In this document: one piece after another, positions 51,501 to 57,500 of the stretch | Layout: each line of letters begins with the position of its first letter | How positions within the stretch are numbered: position 1 is the stretch's first letter | Position numbers: made by a program | From: Escherichia coli | GTDB taxonomy: Bacteria; Pseudomonadota; Gammaproteobacteria; Enterobacterales; Enterobacteriaceae | DNA: 64,000 nucleotides | Strand: one strand, 5' to 3' | Assembly: GCF_045037415.1 (NCBI RefSeq) | Contig: NZ_CP173438.1

Positions 51501-54500
51501 ACACAAGCTCCAGGTTGTGATGCCAGTTCCACCATACGAAGTTTGAATTCATTCGAATAGTTTTTACGAGGTTCTTTTCGCCAGTCCTGTAATTCCATAC
51601 TTAGATGTCCGTCTATATCAGATGGGCGTCTAAGTTACCAATTCTCGTCTGATGGCTACATACGGCGGTCAGTTTACGCTTACCAAAACCCAAACGCTAA
51701 CCTGTAAAAAGAGGGAGGGCTAAGCCCTCCCCATTCAATTTTGTTAACTATCCTTTTCAGGTAGTTTTACAACATAAGTCCTTATTGTTTTCTCATATGT
51801 ATTTTTGCTATTCGTTATTTTGGCCTTAATCCAGTGATAACCACTTTCATAGGTGCTGAATTCCGAAGCTGCATTACCTGTCCAGTGTAACGTTACTGTA
51901 GCAGGCTCCATTTTGACCCGTTGAGAGTCTGGACTATCTTCACTACCAGCAGAAAACTCAACCGTACCAGATAATGGGTTTCCAAAATGATCGACAAATC
52001 GAGCATAAATACCTACTGGAGATCCATCGTTTGTCTCATAACCAGGATCTTTTGTTAGAGTCAATACTCCATTTGCGTCATCAGCGTACAGGGAGAATGA
52101 TTTCACCGCGCTAACATCACTGCCAAGTTCGTTTAAGGTCGCCGTTAATTTATACGAACCAACCGTTCGACCATGTACGCTTACCGTAGCCTGACCGTTC
52201 TCATCAGTCGTTACTGTGGTTTTATCAACCACCAACGCACCATATTTAGACGGCCCAGATGTCTTAACATTCAATGCTCGACCACTTAATGCTTCGCCTG
52301 ACTTACTTTTCAACAGTAACGTAAATACCAGATTGTTGGTATCGCTCACTACAGCCGAAGATGCAGATGATGTGATCTCCAACACAGCCCCCTTCACATC
52401 CGTCACGGCATCAATATTCTGGCTTGCGGTTATGCGTTTCCCATCCAGAACATACTCGGCCTGAATTGTGTACTGGCCTGATTTCGATGCAGTGAACTGC
52501 GTTGTTGCCTGTCCATGAGCATCCAGTTGCAGATTACTACTGGTCAATGATGCTCCCGTCGATGGTGTAATCGTTAAATCCACCTCGCCTGTAAACGCAT
52601 TGTTATTCGCATCAACCAACTGAATGTTTACTGTTGCGTTTTCACTGCCATCGGCCACAATCTCCTGTTTTGATACACTCATATTCAGTTCTGCAGAAGC
52701 AACATCGGGCACAAAAGTTAACTTAACGCTGCCAGATTCCACGCTATGGGAACCGTCAGTCACCCGTGCAGTCACCGTGTACTCACCAGCTTTCACCGTT
52801 GTAAGCGGAACAGAAACATGCCCTGTTGAATCAGTCACGATATTTGTTGGTACAGATAATCCTTCAGATGAGGTGATGAGCTGAATCTTTTGCCCATTGA
52901 CCGACGCATTCGTATTTGTCAGCTGCACATCTAATACCGCTGCATCCTTACCATTAGCAGGAATATTGGAAATTAAACTACTGCTTTCAGGCGTCAGTGA
53001 CAGTGAAGCTCCGGTCATATTTGATGCAAAGGTCACTGTTAACTCAGTAGACATCTGAGAACCAGCATGAGCTGTAATCACGTAAGACCCCGGAGTGGAG
53101 CTTATTAACGCAAAAATAGCATTACCATTTTCGTCAGTTGAAACAGCATGTTCACCACCAACTTGAGTTATCCCTGCTGGTAAAGACAATGTGACAGCAT
53201 AACCAGGAACAACATTGCCGAAACGGTCCGCAAGGCTTACAGTTACCATATTTCTCTGTTTTCCATCAGCCAATGCATTATTTTGGCTGGCTTCAAACTG
53301 AGAGAATGTAACCTGCTGCCGGTCCTCAATAAAGGTGATTTCTTTCTTAACACCTGAGAAATCATGACTATCAGATTTAACACCGATAGTAATCTTACCA
53401 GCTCGTTTTGAAGTTACTGTCGCGCTATAGACACCGTCTTTTTCCGTTACAGTCCCAAACTCGACTCCTTCTGCCTGGTTAAGAGCATAAAAGCTCAGAG
53501 TGTTATCACCAGTGATTGCATTTCCTTGTGAATCCTTCACTGCCAGTTGTAGATTGATATTGTAACCAACTACCTGTTCTGCTGGTGCAGCGGTTAAAAC
53601 AGCACTGACCTCAGAATCAGGTTCTGTTGTTGCTGTTTGCTTAATACTGAGAGTAAATGTTTTTCCCTGAACTTTTGCAGTTACACGTACCGTACCAGCC
53701 TGCGAACCAGCAGCCAGAACAGAGCGATATACACCAGCAGAGATTTCCTCTACCGCGCCTAATGACGGAGCAGTTACCGTTTCACGCTGTCGAGCACTAT
53801 TGCTATCTGCTGTAAATTCCACTGACATTTCAATGTCATCAGCCAGTCCGGTTAATGCCTTACCGTTACTATCTTTCAGGCTTAATACTATCGGATAAGT
53901 GGATTGGCTATCAGCAGAGATCGTCGGCGACGAATCTCCATCCAGTGTAAAAGACGAATCAGCTGTCGATACATCACTATCAGTAATGGCTGCCTGCTTA
54001 ATATTCAGAGTAAAGGTTTTTCCCTGAACTTTTGCAGTTACACGTACCGTACCAGCCTGCGAACCAGCAGTCAGAACAGAGCGATATACCCCAGCAGAGA
54101 TTTCCTCTACCGCGCCTAATGACGGAGCAGTTACCGTTTCACGCTGTCGAGCACTATTGCTATCTGCTGTAAATTCCACTGACATTTCAATGTCATCAGC
54201 CAGTCCGGTTAATGCCTTACCGTTACTATCTTTCAGGCTTAATACTATCGGATAAGTGGATTGGCTATCAGCAGAGATTGTCGGCGACGAATCTCCATCC
54301 AGTGTAAAAGACGAATCAGCCGTCGAGACACCACTATCAGTAACGCTAATATTCATCACGGCATAGTTGGAAACGTTGCCTCTGTTATCCTGTACTGTGG
54401 CTCCAACATTCCACGAATTTACACCTTCGCTTTTATAAGCCGGTAAAGTGATCTGCCATGATGTGCCATTTCCACTGATCTTGCCGCCAGCCGCAGTGAA

Positions 54501-57500
54501 TGCACTATCATTCCACTGTACAGACTTGATACCACCACTAGCATTGTTGATTGTCAGTGTTACAGGGATGATTGATTCCCCCTCCCCCTGAACAGACTCT
54601 GGCAAACTGATTTTCAGTGCATGCTTCTTCTTGTACTCCAGAACAATGTTGTTATTTCGTTCAACAAAATCATAACGCCGGTTCTGGACTTCTCGCATAA
54701 CTGCAACATTATCGCTGCTAAGCTGTTCAGCCAAGGAAACGCCCGGGCGATAATTAAACTCAACACCAAAGGTTGTATCGTGAGTGTTGCTCTGTCCTTG
54801 CTTATGCTGTGCAGAAAACTTAATCAGAGGAACTGGTGTATAAGAAATTCCCCCAGTAACTGCGTAAGGGTTTTCCTGCAGGTTATCGCTTCCAAATAAC
54901 CCGACATTTTTACCATAATATTTTTCAAACTGAATAGATGCCCCTAATTGCGGATAAGCAGGTAGCCATCCTTCAGCAGAAAAATCCCAGCCATTTGCAG
55001 GTCTTTCCAGATAATCATCAATATCACGACTGTTCTTCCAGTCAGATAGACCAAAATAGGTATTTACACCAAGCCTGAAATAATCCCTCCAGTACTCAAC
55101 CCCAAAACCTGCACGAGAGTGACTACGACTTAAATCGTAATCATAGAAAACATTCGCACCCAACATTGCGTTATCAGGAGTGAAATGACGAATCCCCAAA
55201 CCAATATTGGTCTGATTTCGGTCATCAGTACGATGTAGTGATGTCTGACTGAATAACACATAATCCTGAGTATCCAGCCATGGATATAAAAAGTCGAATG
55301 ATGAATCCTTCAAGGAAAAAGAATCATCGACATTAAGCTTGATGCGCGCATTGCCATATTGTTGCAACCAGTCGACGACCTCTTTTGTCGCCTGAGTTGA
55401 TAAAGTATTTACAGCAAAACTACTTGCATTATTATTCGCCAGGCTCTGACCTGCACTTGCTGCAAATGAGGCCACTTTATTTGCATGCTCATCGCTGGCA
55501 TAAATTTGCGTAACATCTTTATTACCAGATGATGCAAAACTGTTTGCTGGGATCAAAGAAAGAGAAACTGGAGATAATATCTGGGTAACAATTACCGACC
55601 ATGTAATCGCGCCAGATGCAGTTTTTTTTAACTTTTTATTCACAGTGGTCATAGTTCAATCAACGTTATGAATATAATGAAAAAAATAACTGGTATGACA
55701 AGAGGCGCGAAATATACAGCTCGTTACAAAAAAATCAACTCAAAAATAAAATAAAATCTCTGCATAAACTTTATGGCTAAATGATTTCACAACAATGGAA
55801 GAAAAATTTTGTTGCTCACGCAATCAATCATTTCGGGCGTTACAACTAGTCCTAGATTATATTCGCTAGGTATACTTTATTTTTAAGCTAATACTTTAGC
55901 TCTATTTCATCGCTCCTTTCAGCCCGAACTTAGCTTTGATTTCTGCGATCTTCGCCAGAGCCTGTGCACGATTTAGAGGCCTACCGCCCATGACAGGAAG
56001 TTGTTTTACTGGTTCAGGTATAGCCTCACCACGGTTAATTCGCGCGGTCATACAGGCCAGTTCATCGGCAGCCTTGCGCCGTAATTCCGCGTCAGTCAAC
56101 GCATTGGCCCGCATGTTCTGATACAGGTTGGTAACCAGCCAGTAGTGCGCGTTTGATTTCCACGGATAAGACTCTGCATCCGGATACAGACCACGCTTCC
56201 GGCAATACTCGTAAACCATATCAACCAGCTCGCTGACGTTTGGCAGCCCGGCGGTAACGGATGCTTCTTCCCGGCACCATGCAACAAACTGCCCGGGTGA
56301 TGGCAGAAATGGTCTATTCTGCCGACGGGCAACACGCATTCCGTCGCTCACCTGCTCCATCGTGGTGATCCCGTTTTCCCGGAAAGCCAGAACCCACTGG
56401 CGGCGGATTTCGTTCAGTTCGTTCTGGTCACGATTAGCCAGGCTCGCCGGGAAAGTTGCCAGTAACTGGCTGAATACACCGTTGATTATCTGCGCTACCT
56501 GCTGTACCTGCGGCTTTTCGTCGTACTGTTCCGGCATGTTGTTGGCGATCCGACGCATCTGCTCACGGTCAAAGTTAATCATCTGTGCGGCGATGTTTTT
56601 CATAGATCCACCCCGTAAATCCAGTCTGTGTTTGTCAGGTCGAGTTTTGGTTTGCTAGCTGTCACGCCTGCCTGTTGCTTGTTACGGTTGATTTCGAGTT
56701 GGGTCCACTTGTCGCGGAGTTTGGCCGGACTTAGCACGTTACCGGACCAGAAGTTGTCCTGGCATGCCCAGCGGAACAGCACGCACATGTCGCGGTGGTT
56801 ACGTCCGTCACGTTCACGCATCAGGCGGATATCGTTAGCCCACCCTGCAAAATTCGGTTTTCTGGCTGATGGCGCGATGGTCTTCACCATGTCAAACATC
56901 CACTCTGCGGCGGTCAGGTCTTCTGCTGTCCCCCACTTGCTGCCGCTCTGAATTGCAGCATCCGGTTTCACCACAGGAAGATCGTTTTCTGGTTGGTCAG
57001 AGGATTCGCCAGAATTCTCGGACGAAAAAGGTTTTATATTGTCTTTTGTTAGTTTGTCTTTTGTGTTTACCTGATTCGGGTAAACGCCTTTACCTGATTT
57101 GGGTAAACTTTTTTTACCTGATTCAGGTAAATTTACCTCTTTCAGGTAAACTTTATTTTTCTTACCTGATTCGGGTAATGTTGACCATTCACTGACCACA
57201 TTATTAATGCCGGTATTCCGCCCGCTCTGAATAAAAATCCCACGCTTTACCAGAACACTTTTTGCAGCAGAACACTTGTGCGGCAATATCCCGGTTAATT
57301 CGGAAAGTTGCTCGTTGCTAACCCAATCCAGTTTTTTATTAAAGCCATATGTTTTGCGCATGACAGCCAGAAAGACCAGAAGCTGGTGCTGTGTTAATCC
57401 GGCCAGCATCACAGCTTCCAGCAACTCATTTGCAATGCGCGTATAACCATCATCGAGATCTGCCACGCGCGGCTCCTTTTGTGCCGCATCCGGCACTGGA

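Follow-up and report, generated by a model that had tools for sequence, protein, structure and literature searches.

A prophage-borne inverse autotransporter gene of Escherichia coli with a strain-variable number of near-identical Ig-like domains: a probable lysogenic-conversion gene

The stretch of Escherichia coli DNA analysed here, referred to as the window, comprises 64,000 nucleotides of contig NZ_CP173438.1 (assembly GCF_045037415.1). On its minus strand at 51744..55652 it carries, within a lambdoid prophage, an open reading frame (ORF) with an ATG start that encodes an inverse autotransporter (IAT), a predicted surface protein of type Ve, of 1302 residues. The gene is kept at a conserved position in its prophages, it is under purifying selection, and it exists in alleles that differ in the number of near-identical and in part chimeric repeat units, which evolve in concert. 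We think it likely that it is a lysogenic-conversion or 'moron' gene whose product is a type Ve surface protein laid out like FdeC, and that the number of its units changes in frame by recombination. The allele in the window has two units and its product corresponds to WP_032142528.1; the orthologue in EC958, the reference strain of sequence type 131 (ST131), is WP_022645049.1 with three units, and the published locus EC958_1349 is probably this EC958 orthologue.

The assignment to the intimin/invasin family is based on the barrel, the topology and the Ig-domain passenger of the predicted protein. The topology is the inverted one, in which a predicted signal peptide is followed by the barrel, and the passenger of Ig-like domains forms the C-terminal part. 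A Sec signal peptide was predicted by eye at about residues 1-41 (55530..55652, on the minus strand like all parts of the gene), with a lysine-rich start, a hydrophobic core and the end ...NSFA/SS. In the lysine-rich start, codons 7-11 (55618-55632, minus strand) contain a run of eight A (TTAAAAAAAACT), which is a possible slippage or frameshift site. The 12-stranded beta-barrel with its linker spans residues 57-341 (54630..55484) and ends in the conserved motif RNNNIVLEYK. The Pfam model IAT_beta (PF11924) matches residues 57-334 with E 4e-101 over 277 of its 279 positions, and the solved barrels of invasin (4e1t; E 9e-74, 48.2% identity) and of intimin from enterohaemorrhagic E. coli (EHEC; 4e1s; E 6e-63, 45.3% identity) both align over their full length to residues 97-341. 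The preliminary description of this DNA, which had been made from the sequence by reading, is thereby borne out in its claim of a 1302-residue inverse autotransporter, as the ORF, the Pfam match and the alignment of the barrel to solved structures agree. Its statement that the barrel is close to intimin is right at the level of the family, at 45% identity, but FdeC and invasin are at about 48%, and no cut-off of an NCBIfam subfamily is reached.

The barrel is followed by D00, the membrane-proximal Ig-like domain (residues 342-441; 54330..54629), which was recognized by the intimin D00-D0 structure 6tqd with E 9e-10 and which is common to 129 of 150 IAT representatives. Further along the passenger, the FdeC fragment 4e9l matches the repeat region (E 8.5e-17) and invasin 1cwv matches residues 791-1035. 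The fourteen Big_1/Invasin_D3 matches that Pfam gave at E <= 0.001 overlap one another and cover about seven Ig-like domains; in all, about ten such domains are counted in the protein. Distal to the repeats, five Big_1/Invasin_D3 Ig-like domains with about 20% mutual identity occupy residues 682-1180 (52113..53609), and the protein ends in a distal tip domain of 122 residues (1181-1302; 51747..52112) that has no cysteines and no C-type lectin signature. Indeed, neither a LysM nor a C-type lectin domain nor any cysteine was found in the whole 1302-residue protein by Pfam and from the sequence. The tip domain had no match in the PDB at E <= 10 and one marginal match among the 150 IAT representatives. 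It scored E 0.53 against Pfam Big_1, and a comparison with the other Ig domains of the protein by hhalign reached E 0.0012 at a probability of 19%; the tip may be a very diverged Big_1-like fold.

Between D00 and the diverged domains lies the repeat array. Tandem Repeats Finder reported it at 53638-54343 with a period of 357, 2.0 copies, 97% matches and a score of 1349, as the sole array in the ORF. Unit 1 (357 bp; 53990-54346, gene nucleotides 1307-1663) is identical to unit 1 of EC958. Unit 2 (53633-53989, gene nucleotides 1664-2020) is a chimera, which corresponds to EC958 unit 2 up to position 257 and to EC958 unit 3 from position 332. Both units agree at 344 of 357 positions, much more than chance would give, in keeping with the earlier account of one Ig-like domain present as two near-identical 357-bp units. 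Among the 13 differences, seven are synonymous and six non-synonymous, and ten lie within the first or last 26 bases of the unit. As 357 is 3 x 119, each unit corresponds to one whole domain of the Invasin_D3/Big_1 type with 119 residues, and recombination between such near-identical units would add or remove whole domains in frame.

That the number of units does change between strains, as had been proposed, is evident from alleles with 100% identical flanks that come in four lengths: 3552 bp with one unit in strain 1442, 3909 bp with two units in the window, 4266 bp with three units in AR_0055 and EC958, and 4623 bp with four units in AVS0193. The repeat unit was found in 559 of 5426 complete E. 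coli genomes (about 10%). A 90-nt probe for the junction between units matched 422 of these 5426 genomes at 782 places, with a median of two per genome, and a probe for the upstream edge of the array matched 411 genomes, nearly always once in each. With the three-unit array (1071 bp) as query, 365 genomes gave a match of at least 99% identity, 56 one of 95-99% and 139 one of 90-95%; these 139 represent a diverged allele family. Approximate numbers for EC958-like alleles are about 365 genomes with at least three units, about 30 with two and about 20 with apparently one. Where a single genome had four junctions, the highest number seen, these could stem from two copies of the gene instead of an array of five units. 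In protein databases, length classes of 1302, 1421 and 1540 residues are present together with many 'partial' proteins of 447-534 residues that end at the start of the repeats, a signature of short-read contig breaks.

Two database entries of this gene deserve a comment. For the four-unit allele of AVS0193 (L006:3695-8317), the RefSeq annotation gives a fragment of a pseudogene and, as a separate entry, an 'invasin domain 3-containing protein'. No stop interrupts the 4623-bp ORF of this allele, however, and it has the same flanks as the other alleles; the pseudogene call thus looks like an annotation artefact. A protein of 1064 residues from two contigs (P0121) was considered as a variant with a different passenger, and this was rejected, because it is the same protein with an out-of-register deletion that removes 238 residues (2 x 119) from D00 (after residue 381) to the second unit (residue 620). 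It represents either an illegitimate deletion or a mis-assembly.

The comparison of the units indicates in which direction the window allele has changed. Unit 1 of EC958 and AR_0055 equals unit 1 of the window, their unit 2 has a start of the last-unit type and an end of the first-unit type, and their unit 3 equals unit 2 of the window apart from position 257. Unit 2 of the window joins EC958 unit 2 to unit 3 and can thus be understood as the product of one unequal crossover within positions 258-331, by which one period was lost, and the reverse route from two to three units requires an extra change at position 257. The ISEc23 insertion found next to the gene in the window is common to 67 genomes; two of the 60 that were listed have two units and the others listed have at least three, which means that a clade with three units gave rise to the short allele, or that an assembly collapse has occurred. 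Judged from these sequence relations, the window allele is most likely a one-unit contraction of the usual three-unit ST131 allele. Strains 1442 and TUM14697 each have a one-unit allele, but the two are chimeras of different composition and hence represent independent contractions.

The duplication itself is old. The preliminary description had called it recent, and this view had to be given up when alleles of the EC958 type, the CU568-3/A22 type and the PAR/MCJCHV-1 type were compared. All three families have the same differences (positions 1-26 and 332-354) that set the start of the first unit and the end of the last unit apart from the internal junction, whereas at least 14 core substitutions (positions 29-182 and 296) are family-specific, yet common to both paralogous copies. 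Shared edges together with family-specific shared cores point to one old duplication that was followed by concerted evolution. Between the window and the PAR allele (L004:10383-14291), synonymous divergence amounts to 0.166 in the repeats, 0.036 in the barrel and D00, and 0.007 in the distal part, and from this unevenness it follows that the gene is also a recombinational mosaic with segmental replacement.

In the comparison of the same two alleles, 41 synonymous and 13 non-synonymous differences give a ratio of non-synonymous to synonymous substitution rates (dN/dS) of 0.096, and the adhesin gene is under purifying selection. The prophages at icd in PAR (L004) and MCJCHV-1 (L005) have frameshifted int and O genes, carry inserted insertion sequences (IS) and have lost the head genes, and within these remnants the ORFs of the adhesin and of a neighbouring esterase are intact. 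The adhesin ORF is open in all alleles examined. The diverged allele, with units of about 94% identity, was seen in a decayed icd prophage in about 139 genomes, and this remnant also has a different Q (quuD) and a phage-borne gene for an OmpC-like porin.

Concerning its place within the family, the window protein reaches none of the NCBIfam subfamily cut-offs for inverse autotransporters: 390 bits were obtained against a cut-off of 2400 for IatC_Nterm, 335 against 1400 for intimin_all, 318 against 999 for SinH, 306 against 750 for YrIlm, 284 against 710 for Inv and 270 against 508 for YchO, and the cut-off for Ilp is likewise beyond its reach. In a search of 1.84 billion cluster representatives, identity over signal peptide, barrel and D00 stayed at or below 50% for all clusters but its own. 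The best non-self cluster (P0122) is a truncated FdeC with 48% identity over these parts. Its gene has the ecp operon, ykgR and an AraC-type gene as neighbours and thus lies at the eaeH/fdeC locus, which makes FdeC the closest named relative. Another protein of 1420 residues (P0137) was tested as a candidate FdeC and turned out not to be FdeC. Low scores and the prophage locus at icd argue against orthology to FdeC, YeeJ, IatA/YchO, IatB/SinH, IatC or IatD, and the protein is not an intimin or invasin proper, as it has no lectin domain and its curated score stays below the cut-off. It thus appears to be nearest to FdeC and yet to form a separate lineage. Among 50,697 deposited phage genomes no close relative was found, the best match being 43% identical; in PHROGs the window protein corresponds to families 7803 and 16344, whose function is given there as unknown.

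With FdeC/EaeH the window protein shares the absence of LysM and of a C-type lectin tip, but FdeC is encoded by a core-genome gene at the ecp-ykg locus and has an unrelated tip, whereas the window gene is prophage-borne. We know of no near-identical tandem units in FdeC. Yersinia invasin and the intimins of enteropathogenic E. coli and EHEC have in common with it the barrel fold family, the end motif RNNNIVLEY, a first domain of the D00 type and a Big_1 stalk, while the C-type lectin-like binding domain, the cysteines and the context of Tir and the locus of enterocyte effacement are missing in the window protein, as is the LysM domain of intimin. A parallel for the array is found in Yersinia ruckeri, where YrIlm has near-identical BIG repeats of about 300 bp that differ in number from strain to strain and are mis-assembled by short reads (PMC10174560). 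YrIlm and YrInv resemble the window gene as inverse autotransporters with near-identical stalk repeats of varying number, but YrIlm differs from it by up to 22 repeats, a LysM domain, a lectin tip and a location in an IS256 composite transposon, as opposed to one to four units of 357 bp in a prophage.

SasG, Rib, Sgo_0707, Esp and CdrA are examples of what has been called Periscope Proteins. These are surface rods with tandem repeats that are highly identical in their DNA and vary in number by intragenic recombination (PMC8201768). The window gene agrees with this description in that its 357-bp units are 96-100% identical and that between one and four units occur in different strains. Periscope Proteins are a functional class, however, and not a homologous family, and the arrays of the window gene are small. 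By analogy to the solved Ig-domain rods of intimin, invasin and FdeC, the repeats may form an extended rod, in which the copy number would set how far the tip projects.

The genomic setting is a prophage. Over 32 kb, the window is 99.997% identical to the E. coli O25b:H4-ST131 genome NZ_OY019088.1, in which the gene lies within a lambdoid prophage integrated at icd. The order of this prophage is int, xis, exo-bet-gam, kil, cI, cro, a gene with a YdaT domain, O, P, the adhesin gene, ISEc23 and an alpha/beta hydrolase gene, followed by ybcN, ninE, ybcO, rusA, Q, the lysis genes, iss, and the head and tail genes. The replication gene P (55902..56603, minus strand) encodes a P-like helicase loader according to PHROG (E 8e-97) and ends 249 nt upstream of the adhesin gene on the same strand, and so the earlier placement directly after P in the rightward early region holds. 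An AT-rich leader fills these 249 nt (55653..55901, minus strand); the composition window 55200-55799, which spans it, has 37% G+C, and the leader contains two sigma-70-like promoter candidates at 55738-55711 and 55701-55674. On the other side, 12 nt after the stop codon, a strong bidirectional intrinsic terminator (51712..51732) with a 9-bp stem, seven G-C pairs and a T-run closes the gene, whose G+C content is 42-46% vs 51-55% in P, O and the nin-Q region.

The hydrolase is a convergently encoded, exported esterase of the BD-FAE/Abhydrolase_3 type (48124..49155, plus strand) with a lipoprotein-like signal (…SVGSC), which PHROG lists as 'esterase'. Its gene adjoins the adhesin gene in every context examined, decayed prophages included, and both may be a single cargo cassette. 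ISEc23, a 2532-bp element of the IS66 family (49152..51683, minus strand), is flanked by 8-bp target duplications GGGTTTTG at 49144-49151 and 51684-51691. It sits beyond the adhesin terminator, leaves the adhesin gene uninterrupted and replaces the last four codons of the esterase gene, and its presence in 67 complete genomes marks an ST131 sublineage. The cassette occupies what we take to be the ren/tR2 region of lambda, and its position between P and ybcN-ninE is kept in intact and decayed prophages alike. A terminator-bounded extra gene at this position would fit ordinary moron architecture rather than being an anomaly, and to call the place unusual for an adhesin was therefore an overstatement, given the low G+C content, the strong terminator and the conserved position. 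Like lom and bor/iss, the cassette has a foreign composition, a terminator of its own, a location between phage modules and an outer-membrane product, but it is far larger (3.9 kb plus the convergent exported esterase) and lies between P and nin rather than in the late region.

Two further features of this prophage were noted. A 218-bp segment of the window (14850-15067) is 94.5% identical to a stretch downstream of icd beside int (L001:10473-10689). It probably represents a duplicate of the attachment-site region at the other end of the prophage, whose length would then be about 50 kb. After the lysis genes lies iss (43713-44006, plus strand), a bor-like gene for a serum-survival lipoprotein, so that together with the adhesin and the esterase the phage carries at least three envelope-related cargo genes.

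How such a gene could work can be outlined as follows. The Sec signal peptide would direct the protein to the periplasm, where the N-terminal 12-stranded barrel would insert in the outer membrane and export the C-terminal passenger, a rod composed of D00, a variable number of 119-residue units, the five diverged Big_1 domains and the tip. Unequal homologous recombination or slippage between units of 96-100% identical DNA would gain or lose domains, by which the length of the stalk changes near the membrane and the tip is left untouched, as is the behaviour of a Periscope protein, and the same recombination would homogenise the units. For the window allele, a crossover between units 2 and 3 of the three-unit ST131 allele, within positions 258-331, would have left two units. 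In lysogens, the gene would be expressed from a promoter of its own that is probably silenced by H-NS, and the length of the stalk may affect function. IatB, IatC and IatD of E. coli are surface-located and promote biofilm (PMC6714894), and by analogy surface display and a role in adhesion or biofilm may be expected for the window protein.

Several observations weigh against this proposal. The tip should determine the ligand, and the only homologues of the tip that were found are fragments of the same protein; an AlphaFold2 model of the last 218 residues from the single sequence was unusable, with a mean confidence score (pLDDT) of 35.7. The scanned region had 13 promoter-like sites where 18.4 were expected in shuffled sequence, and the ribosome-binding site of the adhesin gene looks weak. 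The copy-number counts are indirect and derive from junction counts, identity bands and record spans. The direction from three to two units rests on parsimony at one marker, position 257, and on allele frequencies, and a short-read collapse of a three-unit array would give the identical two-unit sequence.

The last point leads to the view that the array of the window really has three units, as in EC958, and was collapsed to two during assembly. Such a collapse would yield exactly the observed chimera of units 2 and 3, three units are what complete genomes such as that of EC958 usually have, two units occur in only 2 of the 60 listed genomes (67 in all) that share ISEc23, and draft assemblies, in which the 1302-residue form dominates the contigs, contain the many partial proteins of 447-534 residues. 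Nevertheless, we consider a collapse unlikely: a multi-copy IS of 2.5 kb is resolved in the window, which suggests a long-read assembly that spans a repeat of about 1 kb easily, identical two-unit alleles with and without the IS are present in about 30 complete genomes, and two units are the fixed state of the CU568-3/A22 allele family. That one domain of a single-unit ancestor was duplicated in tandem recently is to our mind highly improbable, although one could cite in its favour that the identity of the units is 96% over their full length and 99% within the core, and that one-unit alleles exist. The one-unit alleles are chimeras of first and last units whose flanks match those of multi-unit alleles at all positions or all but one, and are thus deletion products. 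The junction variants (1-26 and 332-354) that are the same in three families with at least 14 core substitutions place the duplication before their divergence, and with a one-unit ancestor all 13 differences would have to be junction-proximal, for which a chance of about 1e-5 was calculated.

It could also be argued that the protein serves the phage, either driven from pR in lytic growth or as a shield against superinfection, and that adhesion is incidental. The gene is on the same strand as O, P, the nin genes and Q, within the delayed-early transcription unit, and PHROGs lists the protein as a phage family. Lambdoid surface morons such as Lom, Bor/Iss and Cor do affect the envelope. As the gene is intact and under purifying selection in remnants that are unable to make phage, has a strong terminator of its own and a foreign G+C content, and is without a close relative among the deposited phage genomes, we think that a service to the phage is rather improbable. 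Slightly more remote still is the idea of a silent cargo that is carried and neither expressed nor used: inverse autotransporters of E. coli are typically silent in the laboratory (PMC6714894), and no convincing promoter or ribosome-binding site was seen. Against this idea stand the dN/dS of 0.096 and an ORF of 3.5-4.6 kb that is open in every allele examined, also in decayed prophages. We prefer to regard the gene as a conversion gene of the lysogen.

In the literature the gene has left little trace. In a survey of the inverse autotransporters of E. coli, intimin, FdeC, YeeJ and IatA-D are given by name, and the tables list only the six named genes (PMC6714894). The genomes EC958, MNCRE44, SaT040 and uk_P46212, which are all in the genome set of that survey, carry the window gene, and it is not among the six genes tabulated for these four genomes. 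Literature searches by the WP accessions found nothing on the protein, and the EC958 genome paper does not mention the gene. The only printed trace that was found is EC958_1349, described as a 'prophage-associated invasin-like protein' with an FdeC-like barrel (PMC8541385). Table 2 of that study reports an insertion, a deletion and a substitution in EC958_1349 between the ST131 isolates UCS1 and UCS1.1 from a reference-guided assembly against EC958, and these changes may be artefacts of the repeat array rather than real mutations.

The array is also a practical trap, as short-read or reference-guided assemblies break or collapse there, and caution is due with reported 'mutations' in this gene and with its length in draft genomes. 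The gene matters because, among multidrug-resistant extraintestinal E. coli, ST131 is the dominant clone, and its adhesins are targets for vaccines and for measures against colonisation. If the length of the stalk affects function, the Periscope idea would extend to a prophage gene of E. coli. One may go further and tentatively suppose that the protein is an eighth, unnamed lineage of E. coli inverse autotransporters whose stalk is actively tuned by recombination between one and four units, to hold the unique tip through or beneath the O25b and K-capsule layer; this combination we think possible, but on balance doubtful. If it is true, a pandemic clone would have received by phage a colonisation factor that switches in length and is at the same time a variable antigen of the cell surface.

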